From contig CAVSLY010000017.1 of NCBI GenBank assembly GCA_963728705.1, positions 58,702 to 122,701 on the forward strand: a stretch of 64,000 nucleotides of DNA, written 5' to 3'. Numbering within the stretch: the first letter of the stretch is position 1; every line of letters begins with the position of its first letter. This DNA is from an uncultured Gemmatimonadales bacterium (GTDB lineage: Bacteria; Gemmatimonadota; Gemmatimonadetes; Gemmatimonadales; GWC2-71-9). This document shows, piece by piece, positions 8,369-44,095 of this stretch. The position numbers and the translations under genes are program-made. The notes below the pieces were generated by a model. The model worked only from the letters and a program-made list of their open reading frames with translations. It did no database searches and was not told where the DNA came from.

Positions 8369-9934
8369 TCAGCCGGTCCGAGGCGTCAGCAGCGCGATCG
8401 GGAGAATCACTTCCTCGGGCGAGACACCGCCGTGGAGGAAGGCGCCCCGGTAGCGCGCTTGATACTCGCGCAGCTTGGTGGGATAGACGAAGAACCGGTC
8501 GCCGGTGGCCAGCAGCAGCCGGGTGCCGGGTGTGCGCGCGGGCAATCCGAAGCTCGCCAGGTCCTCGACGACCAGCGCCGCGTCCGCGTCCTGGGCCCGG
8601 AGGTCGTCGCCGAACTTATACCGCAGGTTGGAGGTCGTGTCGCGCTTGGCGTAGACGGTGGCGGGGGTGTGGCAGTGGATCGAGCCGTGATCGGTCGTGA
8701 GCAGGACCGGCACGCCCCGCCGCTCCGCCTCCCGCAGCGCGTCCCAGAGCGGCGAGCGCTCGAACCAGGTGCGGGTGAGGTTCCGGAGCGCCGACGTGTC
8801 GCGGGCCACCTCGTAGAGCGTCGAGTTCTCGGTCCGCCCATGGGTGAGCTGGTCGATGAAGTTGAAGACCAGCGCGGTCACGCCGTCCTGCGCCAGGTGG
8901 GCCGGCAGTCGCTTGAGGAGCCCGTCGCCGTCGGCGGCCGTAAACACCTTCTCGTAGTGGACGGGAACGTTGCGCCCGGTCAGCTCCTTCAACTGCTCGG
9001 TGAGGAGCTCCGCCTCGTGCGCGTTGAGGCTCGACTCCTCGCTGTCGGTCCACCACTGCGGGTAGCGGGCCTTGATTTCCGCGGGAAAGAGCCCGCTGAA
9101 GATGGCGTTCCGCGCGAACGGCGTCGCGGTGGGGAGAATCGAGAAGTAGTGGGCGGTCTCGATGTCGAACCGCGCGCTGATGAGCGGGCGGATCATGGCC
9201 CACTGGTCCAGGCGGAGGCAATCGACCACGACGAGCAGGACCCGCCGGTGCGTGTCGAGCACCGGTCGCAGAAACTCGGCGCCGATGTCCACCGAGAGCG
9301 GTGGTCGGTCGCTGTCGCCGTCGTGCAGCCAGCGGGCGTAGTTGCGCTGCAGGTACTTGGCGAAGTCCTGCCGGAGGCTCTCCTGCAGCGTCCGGAGCGC
9401 ATCCTGGAGCCCGGGTTCGTCCGCCTGCCCCAGCCGCACTTCCCACTCGGCGAGCTCGGCCACGAGCTCGACCCACTCGCGCCACGCCATCGGCCCGCCG
9501 CGGCGCGCCTCCAGCTCGCGGAAGCGGGTCGCGAAGTCGCGCGAGAGCCGCTGCTGCCGGATCCGGTCCCCGTCGAGCAGCCGGGTGACGACCGAGAGGA
9601 TCTGGCGGGGGTTGACCGGCTTGATCAGGTAGTCCGAGATGTCGGAGCCGATGGCGTCCTTGAGCGTCTCGGTCTCCTCGCTCTTGGTCACCATGACCAC
9701 CGGCATGGCGTGATCCAGGGCCCGAATGGCCCGGAACAGCTCCAGCCCCCGGCGGCCCGGCATCTGCTCGTCGAGCAGAACGACCCCATAGGGTTGGCGC
9801 TGGAGCAGGACGAGGGCGTCGTCGCCGTGAGTCGTGGTCTCGACGGCGAATCCCTGCTCTTCCAGGAAGAGAACGTGGGACGTGAGGCTTTCGACCTCAT
9901 CGTCCACCCAGAGGATGCTCTTGGGACGGGGCAT
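8369..9934 (-). CDS. Response regulator with C-terminal PglZ (alkaline-phosphatase superfamily) domain, PorX-like
   Basis: ORF of 521 aa. CheY receiver (ILWVDDE...VVLLDEQMPGRRG...ITKS-type VMVTKSEE). PglZ core (LLVVVDCLRLDQW...LLTTDHGS...FLHGG). Stop lies 2 nt before the msbA start. Confidence 0.8.
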   Translation of the reverse strand: MPRPKSILWVDDEVESLTSHVLFLEEQGFAVETTTHGDDALVLLQRQPYGVVLLDEQMPGRRGLELFRAIRALDHAMPVVMVTKSEETETLKDAIGSDISDYLIKPVNPRQILSVVTRLLDGDRIRQQRLSRDFATRFRELEARRGGPMAWREWVELVAELAEWEVRLGQADEPGLQDALRTLQESLRQDFAKYLQRNYARWLHDGDSDRPPLSVDIGAEFLRPVLDTHRRVLLVVVDCLRLDQWAMIRPLISARFDIETAHYFSILPTATPFARNAIFSGLFPAEIKARYPQWWTDSEESSLNAHEAELLTEQLKELTGRNVPVHYEKVFTAADGDGLLKRLPAHLAQDGVTALVFNFIDQLTHGRTENSTLYEVARDTSALRNLTRTWFERSPLWDALREAERRGVPVLLTTDHGSIHCHTPATVYAKRDTTSNLRYKFGDDLRAQDADAALVVEDLASFGLPARTPGTRLLLATGDRFFVYPTKLREYQARYRGAFLHGGVSPEEVILPIALLTPRTG

Positions 9935-26691: not shown

Positions 26692-27782
26692 GTGGATCCT
26701 GGGGATCGAGACCTCGTGCGACGAAACCTCGGCGGCCGTGCTCTCGACTGGCGATGCCTCGAATCACGGCGTGCGTGCGGAGCTCGCGGGCCTCTCGATT
26801 CTCTCGCAGGACGTGCACCGGATCTTCGGCGGCGTCGTGCCCGAGCTCGCCAGCCGGGCGCACGTGCAGGCGCTCGGCTCCGTGGTCAACCGAGCCCTGG
26901 GCGACGCCGGTATCGGCCTCCGGCAGCTCGACGGTATCACGGTGACCTCAGGCCCCGGGCTGGTGGGCGCGTTGCTGGTGGGCGTGATGCACGCGAAGAC
27001 GCTGGCGTACAGCCTCGAGCGCCCGCTGCTGGGCGTGAACCATCTCGAGGGCCACCTGTTCGCACCGACGCTGGAGGATGCCGAGCTGGCGCCGCCGTTC
27101 GTGGCGCTGCTGGTGAGCGGCGGGCACACCATGCTGCTCGACGTGCCCGCGTGGGGCGAGTATCGCCTGCTTGGCCAGACGCTCGACGATGCCGCCGGCG
27201 AGGCGTTCGACAAGGTGGCCAAGCTGCTCGGCCTCGGCTATCCGGGCGGGGCGGCGATCGAGCGGCTCGCGCGCGAGGGCCGGCCCGACCGGTTCCGCTT
27301 TCCGCGGCCCATGCGCCAGGAGCTCGATCGCGACGGGCCCCACCGCTACGACTTCTCGTTCAGCGGCCTCAAGACCGCCGTCCTTCGCGTCGTGCGGCCG
27401 ACGCCCGGCGGCGAGCCGGCCGCACTCGAGTGAGCAAGACAAGGCCGACATCGCCTGGGCGTTCCAGGACGCGGCCACCGACGTGCTCGTCGCCAAGGCG
27501 GCGCACGCCACCCTGGCGCTCGGCTACACCGCCGCGATGATCGGCGGCGGGGTCGCCTGCAATCGCGCGCTGGTGACGCGCCTCCGCGACCGGCTGGCGG
27601 GACAGGCCCGGGTAAGCGTAGCTTCCCCGCGGCTCAACACCGACAACGCGGCGATGATCGCCGCCGCGGGTGCGTGGCGGCTCGCGCGGGGCGAACGGAG
27701 CGGCTGGGACCTCGAGCCGCGCGACAACCTTCCCCTGCCGGGCCTCATCGCCCCGAATCCCGTCTCCGGATCCAACGCGTGA
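26684..27782 (+). CDS. tsaD: tRNA N6-adenosine threonylcarbamoyltransferase TsaD, one frame disruption near 27431
   Basis: MAEWILGIETSCDETSAAV...SGPGLVGALLVG...VNHLEGH...LVSGGHT...DDAAGEAFDK. The tail ADIAWAFQDAATDVL...GGGVACNRAL is in the frame of ORF 27171..27782. Confidence 0.9.
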
Positions 27783-28636
27783 CCATCTATCCCTTCAAGA
27801 TCCCGCTGCCATTCTTTCCCCACGAGCTCACCGGCTACGGGCTCATGATGATGGTGGCCTTCCTCATGGGCGGCTGGCTCGTCACGCTCGAGCTCCGCCG
27901 ACGGCGCCTGTCCGAGGACTACTCGGCCGACATGGTCGCCGCGGCGGTGATCGGCGGCATCATCGGGGCCAAACTCTGGTACGTGGCGCTCATGCGGGAT
28001 CCGGGTGCGCTGCTCTCGCGCGGCGGCTTCGTCTGGTACGGCGGCTTCCTCGGCGGCACCGCGGCGGTCATCCTCAACGGCTGGCGGCTCCGCGTGCCGA
28101 TCCGGTGGACCATGCAGCTCATCGCCCCGGCGCTCGCCGCCTCCTATGCGCTGGGCCGGGTAGGGTGCTTTCTCGTCAACGACGACTACGGCCGGCCGAC
28201 GTCGGTGCCGTGGGCCGTGAAGTTTCCCCAGGGGTTGCCGCCATCGACCGCCGGTAACATGGACGTGATGTTCGGCATTCCGGTTCCGCCCGGCGTGTCA
28301 CCGTCGACCGTGCTCGCGGTGCACCCGACCCAGCTCTATGAGACCACGCTCATGCTGGCCGCTTTCACCCTCCTCTGGGCCTGGCGCAAGCGGCCTCGGC
28401 CGGTGGGCTGGCTGTTCGGTTTGTATCTGGTGTTTGCCGGGATCGAGCGGTTCCTGGTGGAGATCCTGCGGGCCAAGGATGACCGCTTGATCGGGACGTT
28501 CACGCTTGCGCAACTCACGTCGGTCATCCTGGTCGCGGTGGGCGTGTGGCTGCTGACGGCTTGGAAGGGCTCGCCGGACCCGGCACCCGGGGCCTATCTC
28601 CTGGGTGGCAAGGAACTGGTCGTGTCAAAGTCCTAG
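27779..28636 (+). CDS. lgt: Prolipoprotein diacylglyceryl transferase
   Basis: GTG 27779 (GTGA overlap with the tsaD stop). Sequence GYGLMMMVAFLMG...WYGGFLGG...GRVGCFLVNDDYGRPT...HPTQLYE. Confidence 0.85.
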   Translation: MTIYPFKIPLPFFPHELTGYGLMMMVAFLMGGWLVTLELRRRRLSEDYSADMVAAAVIGGIIGAKLWYVALMRDPGALLSRGGFVWYGGFLGGTAAVILNGWRLRVPIRWTMQLIAPALAASYALGRVGCFLVNDDYGRPTSVPWAVKFPQGLPPSTAGNMDVMFGIPVPPGVSPSTVLAVHPTQLYETTLMLAAFTLLWAWRKRPRPVGWLFGLYLVFAGIERFLVEILRAKDDRLIGTFTLAQLTSVILVAVGVWLLTAWKGSPDPAPGAYLLGGKELVVSKS

Positions 28637-28784
28637 ACATTTCCTGTAACTTGTCTAGTAGTAATAGGTTACCAGGCGGATTTCAAAAGCTGTCACACTC
28701 CTCGACAGTTCGCGCCCCTTGGTCCACCCTCGGATCGCCGCCGTAAACCTTTGCCTCCCAATAACTTCCGATTTGTGCACCAAT

Positions 28785-28799
28785 TGGCACCACACTTGC
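28785..28799 (+). promoter_or_regulatory. Sigma-54 (-24/-12) promoter, exact consensus TGGCAC-N5-TTGC
   Basis: caatTGGCACcacacTTGCc, with TGGCAC at 28785-28790 and TTGC at 28796-28799. Lies in a 355-bp non-coding AT-richer gap. Inverted repeats sit at about -150 and -110. Confidence 0.5.
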
Positions 28800-28809
28800 C
28801 TTAAGAGAG

Positions 28810-28958
28810 CCCGAGAAGTCGCAGGGGACTTCCACCGGAAAGTGGTAGATCGAAGAAGGGTGGAGCTGGCACATCGGCCTGTCTCCGTAAACTCAGGGGG
28901 CGATCTACCACCTGTCTATGCGAACGGCCCGTCCATCTGGACGGGCCGCTCGCATGTT
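28810..28958 (+). ncRNA. Candidate sigma-54-dependent small RNA (unclassified, ~150 nt)
   Basis: Bounded by the predicted start about 11 nt after the -12 element and by the strong hairpin at 28926-28947. Internal helices are 28815-28832, 28832-28845 and an 11-bp long-range helix (28842-28852 with 28901-28911). No ORF closes before the hairpin. No known-family motif recognised. Confidence 0.3.
28926..28947. terminator. GC-rich hairpin (9-bp perfect stem, tetraloop), possible bidirectional terminator
   Basis: GGCCCGTCC-atct-GGACGGGCC. Followed by gctcgcatgttt on the plus strand. On the minus strand it lies 45 nt after the rraA stop. The U-tracts are weak. Confidence 0.45.
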
Positions 28959-28991
28959 TGGGAGCTGCCCACACGACCGGCACCACTTCGA

Positions 28992-29477
28992 CTAGTCGTC
29001 AGCCAGTTTCCGATCCGCGACCACGATGCCGTCTCGGTCCGCGTAGAGCCAGGCACCCGGGGCGAACGTGACGCCCGCAAAAGCGACGGAGATGCCGCGC
29101 TCGCCGGCGCCGGCCTTGGCACTTCTGCGTGGAACGGCGTGCAGCGCCTTCACGCCGACCGGCGTGCTCGCGATCTCCGCGGCGTCGCGGATGCAGCCAT
29201 ACACGACGAGCCCGCTCCAGCCGTTCTGGTGCGCCAGGGCAGCCAGGTTTCCGCCCACCAGCGCCGACCGGAGCGAGCCTCCGCCATCAATGACGAGGAC
29301 CCGACCCGCGCCCGGCATCTCCAGCGCCTGGCGAATCAGCGCATTGTCCTCGAAGACCCGTAGCGTGGCGATGGGGCCCGCGAACCTTTCGACGCCGCCG
29401 AAATCCCGGAGCACTGGCTCCGCCACACGGACCTCGGCGCCGAATTCATCGCAGAGGTCGGGAGTGGCGAACGGCAT
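28992..29477 (-). CDS. rraA: RraA family protein (RNase E regulator / 4-hydroxy-4-methyl-2-oxoglutarate aldolase family)
   Basis: ATG 29477 in the frame of ORF 28992..29855, overlapping the upstream stop by 1 nt. Sequence [13 protein letters not shown]...[20 protein letters not shown]...[13 protein letters not shown]. Confidence 0.8.
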
Positions 29478-31612
29478 CAGCGAGGCGGCCGAGGCTGGAC
29501 GGGGAGCGATGGCGCGGAGACCAGGTGTCGCCGCATCCGCTCGACCTCGGAGCGCATCTCGGCCAGGTCGGCCTCCATGCGCTCGAGCGAGCGCAGCAGC
29601 TCGACGACCGCGCCGGGACCGACCGCGGTGGCAGGCATGCGGAACGGGGCTGAAGCCGCCGGCGCCACGACGACGGGCGACGCGGGCGCGACGCTCGGCT
29701 CCGGCACCATCACCGAGGTCACGCCGCGCACGCGACGTGGCTCGAGAACGAAGTTCCACACCAGCGCCACCAGCGCGAGCAGGAGCAACAACCCCTGGGC
29801 GCCGAGCGACTCGGCGGTCGGGTAGACGCCGAGCGCCGGAATTCGCGGCGCCCACGAGAGGACCGTCGTGCCGATGAGCCCGCCTTCCTGCAATTCGGCG
29901 ACGCCCTTCCCGGCGAACACGAACGCCATGTAGTAGAGGAACGCGCTGGTCACCGCGAAGAACGGCTTGAGGGGCAGCCGCACACCGAACCGGTTGATCG
30001 CGATGTAGACGCCTACCAGCACCACCGACCCGGCCAGGATGCCGCCGACGATCGGCATCGTCCCGCCCGCGGTGCCGGCGACGAAGAGCGCCTTGTAGAA
30101 CAGCACCGTCTCGAAGCCCTCACGGTAGACCGCGAGAAACGCCGCGCTCGCGAGGGCCAGCGCCGAGCCGCTGTCGAGGGCATCCTGCACCTTGCTCTTC
30201 ACGAACTTGTTCCACTTCACCACTTCCATCTTCGACAGCAGCCAGTAGCTGACGTAGAACAGCATCACAGTCGCCACGACCATCGTGCCGCCCTCGAGGG
30301 CCTCGCGGTGAGCCGCGCTCAGCACGAACACCGTCTCGAGCGCGATCGCGGTCAGGAGGCTGGCGGCGATCGCCGCGCTGACGCCCACGTGGATGTCCCG
30401 GCGGCGACGGGAGGCCCCCATCTTCACGAGGAACGTCATGAGCGCGCCGACGATCAGAATCGCCTCGAGGCCCTCGCGCAGCATGATGATGAACGACTGC
30501 ATGAACAGGTTGAATGGCGAGTCCTGGTCGCCGAGCGCGCGCTCGGCGCTCTCGAGTCCGGCATCGAGCTGGCGGCGGAGCGCGTCGAGCTCGGCCGGCG
30601 TGGCGCCGCCTGCGGCCCGCGTCCGGAGCGAGGCGAAGTCGGTCTCGAGCCGGGTGGCCAGGCCGGGGTTCTTGGCTCGCACGCCGCGCTCGACCTGCTC
30701 GAAAGTCATGTACGCGTCGAACGCCCGGGCTGTCGCGGCGGGATCACCGGTGCGGGCAAGAGCGAAAGCCGTGTCGAGCTGCGCCCGCACCCGCGCGAAG
30801 ACCTGGTCGGACTCCGTGCCCGTGTGGTCGGCCTGGAAGGTGCGTACCGCCGCGAGCTGGCCGAGCGCCTCGGGCCCGCTCTGCCCACTCATGCCCAGCG
30901 CGCTGAGCACGGCTTCGTCGGACATCTTGCCGGTCGTCGCGAAGGGGCGGAGCGACGGCGGAACGTCGCCGCGGGGCGCCGGCACCCGGAGGATGCTGGC
31001 GTAGAGCGCGGCCGCCCAGCGGTCCTCGACGGGGAGGCGGCCCTCGAAGGCCGGCATCGCCGTGCCCACGGTGCCGATGCTGATGCGTCGGAAGTAGTCG
31101 AGCGGCGAGACGTCGCGCAGTGCGGCGCCGTCAGCCAGGTTGGCGGGTCGTGGATCGAGGCTGGCGGCCAGGGCGCCGTCGCCCCTGCCCACGGACCCAT
31201 GGCAGCTCGCGCAGTTGGCCTGGTAGATCTCCGCGCCTCGCGAAAGCGAGGGCGTCTGCGCCGGCAGCTCGTCGAGGGTGATCCCGAGGCGCTCGGTGAG
31301 GCCCGCGTTGAGCGAGCGCACGTGGGCATCGAGCGAGTCGGGAGGCGCGGTTCGGTTCACCAGCGACGCCAGCGCGTCGATCTCCGACGCGGCAGGCCGG
31401 CCGGCCTCGGACGGCAGAAGGGCCGCGGAGCGCCGGGCCTCCTGCAGGAAGAGCTGGGCCTCCTCCACCTCGGCCTTGGCCACGACCCGGCCGTCGATGA
31501 CGCCGATCCGGTACTCCTGGGCCGCGAGCTGTGCGGTCGCCGCGATGCGCCGGGCGACTGGGGCAGGATCCTGTGAGACGACCGGCTGCTGGGTAGCCTG
31601 GAGCGAAGACAC
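29477..31612 (-). CDS. Cytochrome c domain fused to an FTR1/EfeU-family high-affinity iron permease
   Basis: ORF of 711 aa. Heme motif [11 protein letters not shown]. Two REGLE-type motifs, [10 protein letters not shown] and [10 protein letters not shown], in a 7-TM region. The real start is probably ATG 31649 with a 1-nt indel near 31628-31640 (see findings). Confidence 0.8.
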
Positions 31613-35148: not shown

Positions 35149-36495
35149 TCAGGAGGTGAGCGAGTAGCGCTTGATCTTGTTGATCAGCGTGGCGCGCGAG
35201 ATCCCGAGCTCGAGGGCGGCGCGGGTCCGGTTGCCGGTGTGGTGCTTGAGGGTACGCTCGATGTGCTGGCGCTCGAGATCCTCGAGGCTGAGCGGCGTGT
35301 GGCGCCGATCGCCGATCCCGGGCCGGGCGCGGAATTCGCCGGGCAGGTGTTCGACGCTCACCGCCGGTGCGCCGCGGCCGAGAATGAGCGCCCGCTCGAG
35401 CACGTTCCGCATCTCGCGTACGTTGCCGGGCCAGCCGTAGGCCAGGAGTCGGTCGAGGACCTCGCCCGAGAGCGTCGGAGGGCCGTCGGGGAGCTCGGAG
35501 CGAAGGTCGGTCGACAGCCGGGTGATGAGCGCCATCCGGTCCTCGCGCGAGCGGTCGCGCACCGCGGGGAGCTGAAGCGGCATCACGCTCAACCGGTAGT
35601 AGAGATCCTCCCGGAAACGCAGGTCCTCGACCTCGCTCTGCAGGTCCTTGTTGGTCGCCGCGATGAGCCGCACGTCCACGGTGATCTCGCGGGTCCCGCC
35701 GAGCCGGCGGAAGGTCTTGGTCTCGAGCACCTTGAGGAGCTTGGGCTGGAGCTCCGGCGCGAGATCGCCGATCTCATCGAGGAAGATCGTGCCGTGGTCG
35801 GCGATCTCGAACAGGCCCTGCTTCCGGTCCTTGGCATCGGTGAACGCCCCCTTCTCGTGCCCGAACAGCTCGCTGTCGAGGAAGGTGGCGTTGAGCCCGG
35901 CGCAGTTGACCTCGACGAACGGAGCCTTGGTGCGAGGGCTCAGATCGTGGATCATCCGCGCTACCCAGCCCTTGCCGGTGCCGCTCTCGCCGGTGAGGAG
36001 CACAGTCGTCCGCTCGCTCTGGGCCAGGAGCCCCACCTGGTGGGCGAAATCCTGCATGCCCGACGACGTGCCCAGCGAGTCGAGCCCGTACCCTGGGGCG
36101 GTCTGCCCCAGCAGCGCCTCGTTGATCCGCCGGAGCCGTGCCTTGTCGGCCACTCGGGCGGTGGCGGCGGCGAGGTGCTCCATGTCCACGGGCTTGGTGA
36201 GGAAATTCTCGGCCCCGAGCTGCATGGCGCGGACCGCGGTGGCGACGTCGCTCTCGCCGGTGAGGAGAATGACGGCGGCGTCCCGTTGCCGCAGGTGCTC
36301 GAGGACCTCCAGGCCGTCCATCCCCGGCAGGCGCAGATCCAGGATCACCACCTCGGGCCGCAGGCGATCGAACGTGACCAGTCCCGCCTCGCCGCTCAGC
36401 TCCCGGGTGACCTCGTACGACAGGCGCTCGAAGTAGTTCCCGATGCTGCGCAAAACGTCGACATCGTCATCGATGAGGAGGACGGATCCGGCCAT
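35149..36495 (-). CDS. Sigma-54-dependent response regulator (NtrC family: receiver + AAA+ + Fis-type HTH)
   Basis: ORF of 448 aa. Motifs: VLLIDDD...ILDLRLPGMDG, Walker A GESGTGKG, sigma-54 contact loop variant GAFTDA, GTIFLDEIG, GNVREM, and C-terminal HTH RTRAALELGISRATLINKIKRY. Confidence 0.9.
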   Translation of the reverse strand: MAGSVLLIDDDVDVLRSIGNYFERLSYEVTRELSGEAGLVTFDRLRPEVVILDLRLPGMDGLEVLEHLRQRDAAVILLTGESDVATAVRAMQLGAENFLTKPVDMEHLAAATARVADKARLRRINEALLGQTAPGYGLDSLGTSSGMQDFAHQVGLLAQSERTTVLLTGESGTGKGWVARMIHDLSPRTKAPFVEVNCAGLNATFLDSELFGHEKGAFTDAKDRKQGLFEIADHGTIFLDEIGDLAPELQPKLLKVLETKTFRRLGGTREITVDVRLIAATNKDLQSEVEDLRFREDLYYRLSVMPLQLPAVRDRSREDRMALITRLSTDLRSELPDGPPTLSGEVLDRLLAYGWPGNVREMRNVLERALILGRGAPAVSVEHLPGEFRARPGIGDRRHTPLSLEDLERQHIERTLKHHTGNRTRAALELGISRATLINKIKRYSLTS

Positions 36496-43901: not shown

Positions 43902-44095
43902 TTGGCGGACGACCCGCGGCGGGCTCCTGCGCCCCCGCCGGTCCGGCAGCCGCGAGGAGCAATGCCAGCGCCACCGCGGCCCGGCCCCTCACTGGGGCAC
44001 CTGGGCCGGGCGTCGAGGGACGGAGAGGGGTGGCTGCGCGATTGACGGCATGCTCTAAGCCCGGTAGTTTGACCACCTTACGCTTTCAAGTCAAC

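Follow-up and report, generated by a model that had tools for sequence, protein, structure and literature searches.

A predicted sigma-54-dependent structured RNA gene downstream of lgt in Gemmatimonadales

We analysed the 355-bp gap between two convergent genes, lgt (ending at 28636) and rraA (ending at 28992), in a 64-kb stretch of contig CAVSLY010000017.1 (hereafter the window, whose position numbers are used throughout). In our reading, to which we give a probability of roughly 0.8, this gap contains a stand-alone gene for a trans-acting structured small RNA (sRNA) whose transcription would depend on sigma-54. The predicted RNA is ~150 nt long and lies at 28810-28960 on the + strand, as indicated by a covariance model (R1), the fold z-score and a strand test on G.U pairs. 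At its 5' side stands a match to a sigma-54 promoter and at its 3' side a GC-rich, covarying hairpin with a T-rich tail, so that the element has a promoter and a terminator of its own. The initial annotation of this DNA had proposed an undescribed sigma-54-dependent sRNA in the gap. The absence of an Rfam family, the conserved promoter and helices, the covariation, the single copy and the non-coding character of the element support this proposal, and the RNA appears to represent a new family, uncatalogued in Rfam, of sRNAs that depend on an activator and on sigma-54.

Promoter, distribution and coding potential of the element

The putative sigma-54 promoter at 28785-28799 (+) consists of TGGCAC (-24), a 5-nt spacer and TTGC (-12). 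The site, TGGCACcacacTTGC, is the sole exact TGGCAC-N5-TTGC in the window, where 0.11 such matches are expected, in line with the earlier estimate of less than one by chance. At least one exact match also occurred in 11 of 100 dinucleotide-preserving shuffles, so the match taken alone is suggestive and only modestly unlikely. When one mismatch was allowed, the window held 4 sigma-54-like sites against 3.3 expected, which is no more than chance. Conservation among relatives had been named as a check on the promoter. When 71 sequences were aligned with MAFFT without constraints, the columns of TGGCA and TTGC came out at least 97% conserved, whereas the 5-nt spacer and both flanks varied. Of the metagenome loci among the matches listed, 102 of 103 had the promoter at a constant distance, and TGGCAY-N5-TTGC with a free spacer was kept in more than 170 loci. 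Hexamers that are kept while the spacer drifts are what one expects of a DNA signal that a protein reads. The RNA would start at about 28809-28812, 11-13 nt past the GC of the -12 element, and would end in the T-rich tail.

The Lgt protein places the window in Gemmatimonadales. We collected 80 species-representative loci of related Lgt proteins, the best of which is 94% identical; 79 of them are labelled Gemmatimonadales, Gemmatimonadaceae, Gemmatimonadetes or Gemmatimonadota, the exception being L058, labelled Acidimicrobiia. An nhmmer search with the gap showed that in 70 of the 80 loci the element comes directly after lgt, and the contig of L047 terminates exactly at the promoter TGGC. Two Lgt relatives with long flanks (P0105 and P0111) both carry the sRNA gene. 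A metagenome search with an RNA-internal pattern only, GAAGAAGGGT-N25-34-CTCAGGGGGCGA, returned at least 120 contigs. Most of these came from soil, where Gemmatimonadota rank among the most abundant bacteria. The covariance model identified 119 of the 120 matches listed as genuine, all sharing the lgt context, and L170 proved to be a purine-rich chance match. Genomes and metagenome contigs together, the element is known in at least about 190 sequences. In one relative that lacks the sRNA gene, tandem CCCTCTTAGCCCTCTTTT-like repeats occupy the space downstream of lgt (L064:1090-1300).

Over both sets, and among the matches listed, the gene that immediately precedes the element on its own strand is lgt in 135 of 136 assessable loci, and a convergent rraA lies downstream in 122 of 153. 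Other downstream neighbours, including a DinB-like gene and an FTR1-cytochrome c gene, are also convergent, and no co-directional downstream gene was found in any locus examined. Because the element is single-copy, keeps its context and never precedes a co-directional gene, it can be neither a leader or riboswitch nor a mobile repeat.

At the gathering thresholds of Rfam 15, neither strand of the 64 kb gave a match, so the suggested search against known families came back empty. In E-value mode, the region 28500-29100 yielded only spurious miRNA and CRISPR hairpin matches on the terminator, together with ivy-DE at E = 2.5 on the wrong strand. Our search of the open-access literature found no paper that links Gemmatimonadetes to sigma-54 and sRNA or to structured non-coding RNA motifs, and no regulatory RNA described for Gemmatimonadota.

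The gap had been described as AT-richer than its surroundings and as lacking a credible open reading frame (ORF), and both statements hold. Its GC content is 53-61% against ~70% in the flanks, and its sole long + strand ORF (28719-29363, GTG-initiated) runs antisense into rraA. The element is non-coding, since 1-nt indels inside the RNA core (L009, L033, L041, L043) break any reading frame and no codon-like, third-position variation was found across the aligned relatives. In this window the GTG-initiated frame stays open across the element, which would allow a small protein gene; considered alongside it is an element acting as DNA, be it a recombination site or a mobile or repeat element. We give these readings a negligible chance, because the core indels break every frame, the changes seen are compensatory ones in paired columns with none at third positions, and the element is single-copy in a fixed context. 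ARAGORN found no tRNA or tmRNA within the window.

Structure and strand of the predicted RNA

Covariance model R1 scored 154.9 bits on 28807-28960 (+), the one full copy in the window. The + strand from ~28808 to 28960 folds as three stem-loops with a minimum free energy of -76.8 kcal/mol (z = -5.1). A consensus fold computed with RNAalifold on 65 genome copies contains P1, P2, P2a, P3 and the terminator, with 41 pairs in all. Covariation in relatives had been put forward as a check, and in these 65 copies 98.4% of the cells were paired and 21 of the 41 pairs showed compensatory changes. None of 500 column shuffles reached the observed values, and sliding the 3' partners by 1-3 columns left 32-49% of the cells paired. 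The 99 independent metagenome copies, among the matches listed, were 98.3% paired with 20 compensatory pairs, in an alignment that was fitted to the covariance model and in which two blocks were fixed by the search pattern.

Fold energy cannot select the strand, because the - strand also folds (z = -6.9). The G.U pairs were more telling: there are 208 G.U cells on the + strand, with one position being G.U in 57 of 65 sequences, and the - strand reading pairs only 91.1% of the cells against 98.4% on the + strand. The RNA is therefore placed on the + strand, the only one that the G.U pairs fit and the one that carries the T-rich tail.

The helix GAAGTC/GACTTC that had been marked in the DNA is P1 of the consensus (GAAGUC/GACUUC, 28815-28832, with arms 28815-20/28827-32). 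Its sequence varies while pairing is kept, and compensatory changes occur in 5 of 6 pairs; for example, U-A replaces C-G in 28 of 65 sequences. An extension of P1 by CCG/CGG was rejected at only 39.5% paired. The CCAC/GTGG hairpin, which had been thought to compete with the long-range helix, does exist here, yet relatives do not preserve it: its pairing among them stands at 58.6%, equal to controls and without covariation, and we rejected it as an alternative. The repeat finder returned the 11-bp helix 28842-52/28901-11 and a hairpin with 18-nt arms (28918-35/28938-55), and no internal repeats in the element. The former was already recognised as a perfect helix and is 100% paired in relatives. 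The latter had been noted as a GC stem with a tetraloop and turned out to be larger than described, at 18 nt per arm. With its T-rich tail (28918-28960, +) this inverted repeat, I1, resembles an intrinsic terminator, and 9 of its 13 pairs show compensatory changes. Over 171 loci of this ~70% GC lineage, T makes up 45% of the 12 nt that follow GGGCCG on the + strand.

A symmetric terminator stem between convergent genes, together with the well-folding - strand (z = -6.9), would also suit a cis element of the convergent pair, namely a bidirectional lgt/rraA terminator. The promoter might then drive antisense RNA into the downstream gene, and the + strand ORF shows no sequence-level block to read-through into rraA. 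We consider such a cis function very improbable. The 70-nt core upstream of the terminator is conserved far beyond what a terminator needs, and the G.U pairs suit the + strand only. The RNA also stays constant while the downstream gene changes (rraA, the DinB-like gene, the FTR1-cytochrome c gene and others), and in relatives without the element lgt and rraA abut with no such hairpin, as seen in 4 of the 8 absence loci (L023, L024, L057, L062).

The near-invariant 70-nt core itself occupies 28842-28911 (+) in the alignment of genome and metagenome copies and comprises P2, P2a and P3. It reads GUGGUAGGUCG-AAGAA-GGGU-[P3 hairpin]-GUAA-ACUC-AGGGGG-CGAUCUACCAC. Its parts are P2 (11 bp, 28842-52 with 28901-11, +), a purine-only 5x6 internal loop with AAGAA (28853-57) opposite AGGGGG (28895-900), the predicted helix P2a (GGGU/ACUC, 28858-61 with 28891-94), a GUAA bulge (28887-90) and the P3 hairpin (28862-86), all on the + strand. 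P2a and the loops are invariant, and 5 of the 8 pairs of P3 show compensatory changes. P2 varies at four positions only, with U-A changed to C-G in 5 and 14 sequences and G.U changed to A-U in 7 and 9. The core is almost invariant though the Lgt proteins of the carrier genomes are only 70-94% identical, and it stays fixed while P1, the linker and the terminator drift; the pyrimidine-rich linker is among the least conserved parts of the RNA. Both helix strands are constrained in sequence and the 5x6 loop consists of purines only, beyond the needs of pairing, from which we infer that the folded core would be recognised by a conserved partner.

Many metagenome contigs start or stop inside the sRNA gene (L082, L086, L091, L092, L094, L111, L146, L147, L150, L160 and L181), and the near-identical core of co-occurring strains probably breaks assembly graphs at this point.

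Upstream sites and a candidate activator

For the region in front of the promoter, we anchored 151 distinct upstream regions on the promoter. Two inverted repeats had been assigned to activator binding in the initial annotation, and only one of them kept this role. CTGTC-N9-GACAG at 28690-28708 is conserved and contains the palindrome TGTCACACTCCTCGACA (28691-28707), a proximal candidate activator site whose centre lies ~112 bp upstream of the predicted start. The other, CCTGTAAC...GTTACCAGG, had been placed slightly off; it lies at 28644-28677, is imperfect, and belongs to a different conserved repeat, as one copy of an IHF-like inverted repeat. The true partner of the proximal site is a second TGTC-N9-GACA palindrome, TGTCAAAGTCCTAGACA, at 28623-28639, a distal candidate site for an enhancer-binding activator that overlaps the lgt stop codon TAG (28634-28636).

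These two palindromes are the only exact TGTC-N9-GACA copies in the 64 kb, and both lie upstream of the promoter. Their consensus across the 151 loci is yGTCAAA-N5-TnGACAg; they start ~92 and ~159 bp upstream of TGGCAC, with centres at about -112 and -180. At least 6 of the 8 palindrome bases were present at the proximal position in 82 of 151 loci and at the distal position in 73; for four equally wide control windows the figure was 2-10 of 151. Where both sites reached this level, they were spaced 66-67 bp apart in 51 of 56 loci. The spacer length is also specific, with 107 occurrences of GTC-N9-GAC against 5 for N10 and 15 for N8.

Two IHF-like inverted repeats flank the proximal palindrome. 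Repeat A, the one at 28644-28677, lies between the two candidate activator sites and takes the form sTAAG-N-CTTAs in relatives, with half-sites that resemble IHF sites (CAR-N4-TTR). Repeat B (GTAAACCTTTG...CAATAACTTCC, 28743-28769) follows the proximal palindrome and precedes the -24 element; its form in relatives is cTAAGtcgTTG...CAACGACTTAC, and AACGACTTAC is visible in the alignments. Measured from the start of TGGCAC across the 151 loci, STAAR has its peak near -140 and YTTAS near -120 for repeat A, and the corresponding peaks for repeat B lie near -45 and -20.

This layout suggests the following mechanism. A pair of NtrC-type activator dimers would bind the two TGTC-N9-GACA palindromes, ~112 and ~180 bp upstream of the start, and the DNA between them and the promoter would be bent at the two IHF-like repeats. 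The activator would then remodel the sigma-54 RNA polymerase held closed on TGGCAC-N5-TTGC, and transcription would run from ~28810 to the GC-rich hairpin with its U-rich tail, ending at ~28957. The transcript is predicted to fold into the variable P1, the near-invariant P2/P2a/P3 domain with its purine-only loop, the variable pyrimidine-rich linker and the terminator, and it would act in trans. Comparative evidence for the RNA family is very strong: it establishes the sequence elements and their conservation, the covariation, the strand, the single copy, the synteny and the lack of both a coding frame and a cis target, whereas dependence on sigma-54 and an activator, the start site and action in trans are drawn from these by inference.

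The gene lgt (27779-28636, +; Pfam LGT, 4.6e-51) encodes prolipoprotein diacylglyceryl transferase, and its 3' end contains the distal candidate activator site. That lgt comes just before the element, in the same orientation, in 135 of 136 loci could indicate that the RNA is a 3' untranslated region element of lgt, or is derived from the lgt 3' end by read-through and processing, with the sigma-54 match fortuitous or secondary. The terminator scan called nothing between lgt and the element, which also fits. We nevertheless regard this origin as quite improbable, because TGGCAY-N5-TTGC in more than 170 loci, combined with position-fixed palindromes and IHF-like repeats, bears the signature of DNA read by a protein and not of an RNA motif. 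The linkage can be accounted for without co-transcription by the distal candidate activator site within the 3' end of lgt: the near-absolute association with lgt would follow from the position of this palindrome, and a functional tie to lgt is unnecessary.

A possible activator for the sRNA gene is encoded ~6 kb away at 35149-36495 (-), as the initial annotation had observed. By its Pfam domains (REC, sigma-54 AAA+ and HTH_8) it is an NtrC-family response regulator and sigma-54 activator, and we treat it as a candidate cognate activator only. NCBIfam gave no equivalog at cut-off for this product, and no histidine kinase gene was found beside it. Orthologs 89-93% identical to it occur 5.4-6.5 kb from the sRNA gene in 10 of 10 far-reaching metagenome contigs and in L201 and L202. 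Since the whole region is collinear in these relatives, the proximity is compatible with a link and is not evidence for one.

Mode of action and comparison with known RNAs

The closest functional analogue of the predicted RNA is the GlmY/GlmZ pair of Enterobacteriaceae (Rfam GlmY_tke1 and GlmZ_SraJ). Both are stand-alone sRNA genes of ~150-200 nt with three stem-loops, an intrinsic terminator and a sigma-54 promoter, as the element described here is predicted to be. The glmY promoter is activated by GlrR, which binds TGTCN10GACA palindromes located over 100 bp upstream; its proximal palindrome is flanked by IHF sites, and the glmY RNA has three stem-loops (PMC3045617). Our element has two TGTC-N9-GACA palindromes more than 100 bp upstream and two IHF-like repeats flanking the proximal one. 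GlmY is described as a protein decoy tied to the supply of cell-envelope precursors (PMC4152352); here, the sRNA gene adjoins lgt and an envelope gene cluster lies nearby.

The differences from this pair are substantial. The region 28500-29100 matches neither Rfam model up to E = 10, and there is no sequence similarity. The palindrome spacer is N9 here and N10 at glmY, with two sites instead of three. No glrK-glrR (qseE-qseF) operon is adjacent; the neighbours are lgt and rraA, and the nearest activator gene is ~6 kb away. A sigma-70 promoter scan of 28300-29300 found none, so an overlapping promoter of the glmY kind is lacking, and no paralogous second copy was found. We therefore rejected membership in the GlmY/GlmZ family on the absence of a covariance-model match, the N9 spacer, the missing two-component operon and the different phylum.

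Other sRNAs share only the logic of activator and sigma-54 with the RNA described here. The Qrr sRNAs of Vibrionaceae have sigma-54-only promoters, the NtrC-type regulator LuxO and a long, absolutely conserved segment that is largely single-stranded; they are ~100 nt long, Hfq-dependent and multi-copy, and in at least one case lie beside luxO. In contrast, our element is single-copy, its conserved part is a closed helical domain, and it matches no Rfam Qrr model. CrcZ/CrcY and NrsZ of Pseudomonas are sRNAs driven by CbrB or NtrC and sigma-54; CrcZ, ~400 nt long, sequesters a protein by repeated A-rich motifs, and NrsZ consists of processed repeats. The RNA here has no internal repeats and no Rfam match to them. 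A sponge of the CsrB/RsmZ type was also rejected, as the consensus has no GGA in hairpin loops and only a few GGA in a stem or in the non-conserved linker.

If the gap is indeed a stand-alone sRNA gene, several modes of action can be considered. That the core serves as a protein-recognition platform, either a GlmY-like decoy or a chaperone-bound module, is a serious prospect at nearly even odds. Classical base pairing through the loop purines or the linker is also plausible, at rather less than even odds, and something else, such as ligand sensing, would be unlikely.

The base-pairing alternative can be stated more exactly. The RNA would be an Hfq-type sRNA in which the linker (CCACCUCUCU-like, 28908-28919) or the opened purines CGAAGAAGGGUGGAG pair with mRNAs, probably envelope or lipoprotein mRNAs, and the rest is scaffold; this contests the mode of action only. 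The layout of 5' hairpins, single-stranded linker and terminator with U tail is typical of such RNAs, AAGAAG can be read as two A-R-N triplets, which the distal face of Hfq binds, and the linker is anti-Shine-Dalgarno-like in roughly half of the copies. This same linker, however, is among the least conserved parts of the RNA. The invariant bases lie inside a very stable, fully paired domain, in which 7 of the 11 P2 pairs never vary, and would therefore be poorly accessible; moreover, no conserved complementary site was found in ~1.1 Mb of neighbouring sequence. We regard this form of the RNA as possible, though on balance we lean against it.

More tentatively, and with more doubt than confidence on our side, we suggest that P2/P2a/P3 would be a dedicated receptor for a conserved protein or small ligand and not a seed, and that the RNA would be the decoy or sensor output of an envelope-linked sigma-54 two-component pathway. 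If true, this would make the RNA a functional analogue of GlmY that is evolutionarily unrelated to it, and the first regulatory RNA circuit defined in Gemmatimonadota.

A number of observations weigh against a sigma-54-dependent, trans-acting sRNA gene as a whole. The six-frame translation of the 64-kb window contains no RpoN box. The sigma-54-contacting loop of the candidate activator is GAFTDA, not the canonical GAFTGA, and it is the same in nine orthologs; no TGTC-N9-GACA occurs near the operon of this activator. The U-tail in this window (CTCGCATGTTTG) is weak, which explains why a simple terminator scan missed the hairpin and called none. P2a and the internal loops show no variation at all, and covariation therefore gives that part of the fold no test. 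RNAduplex against the 49 translation-initiation regions of the window produced uninformative full-length duplexes in this GC-rich DNA and no target, and no syntenic complementary 9-mers were conserved in the ~1.1 Mb of neighbouring sequence. Finally, the element is absent from 8 of the 80 related genomes and a relic in one (L053). The relic, downstream of lgt at L053:4846-4960, retains the 3' half (GTAAACTCAGGGGGCGA and the terminator) without promoter or 5' half, and scores only 44 bits with the covariance model. With eight genomes lacking the gene and one relic, the sRNA gene appears dispensable in some lineages.

As it stands, the element offers a complete circuit that can be tested, with predicted sites for an activator and for DNA bending, a sigma-54 promoter, a structured RNA and its terminator, and its about 190 natural variants form a ready-made mutational map. 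The promoter layout converges on that of enterobacterial glmY. The covariance model can be used at once for annotating the RNA in metagenome-assembled genomes, where the element may explain assembly breaks.

Sigma-54 is almost universal in lipopolysaccharide-containing diderms and has been proposed as a controller of the cell exterior (Francke et al., PMC3162934). The neighbourhood with lgt and tamAB fits this proposal, as context only. Downstream of tamA-tamB, in an envelope-flavoured cluster, the candidate activator gene has a YegS-like lipid kinase gene on one side and an NlpC/P60 hydrolase gene on the other. The cluster runs tamA, tamB, YegS-like lipid kinase, activator, a 61-residue ORF, NlpC/P60, HAD, an unassigned 247-residue ORF, ACPS, FTR1-cytochrome c and rraA (28992-29477, -; Pfam RraA-like). 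Near the annotated start of tamA, a one-mismatch sigma-54-like site, TGGCGCTGGCATTGC (43959-43973, -), lies inside an apparent signal-peptide coding sequence; it is therefore probably not a promoter, and the real tamA start is probably further upstream than annotated. The gene at 29477-31612 (-) encodes a 711-aa protein in which a cytochrome c domain precedes, in fusion, an iron permease of the FTR1 family, and its place beside rraA is conserved in relatives. Elsewhere in the window, a gene at 8369-9934 (-) encodes a response-regulator receiver fused to a PglZ domain, within a cluster of glycosyltransferase and ABC-exporter genes.

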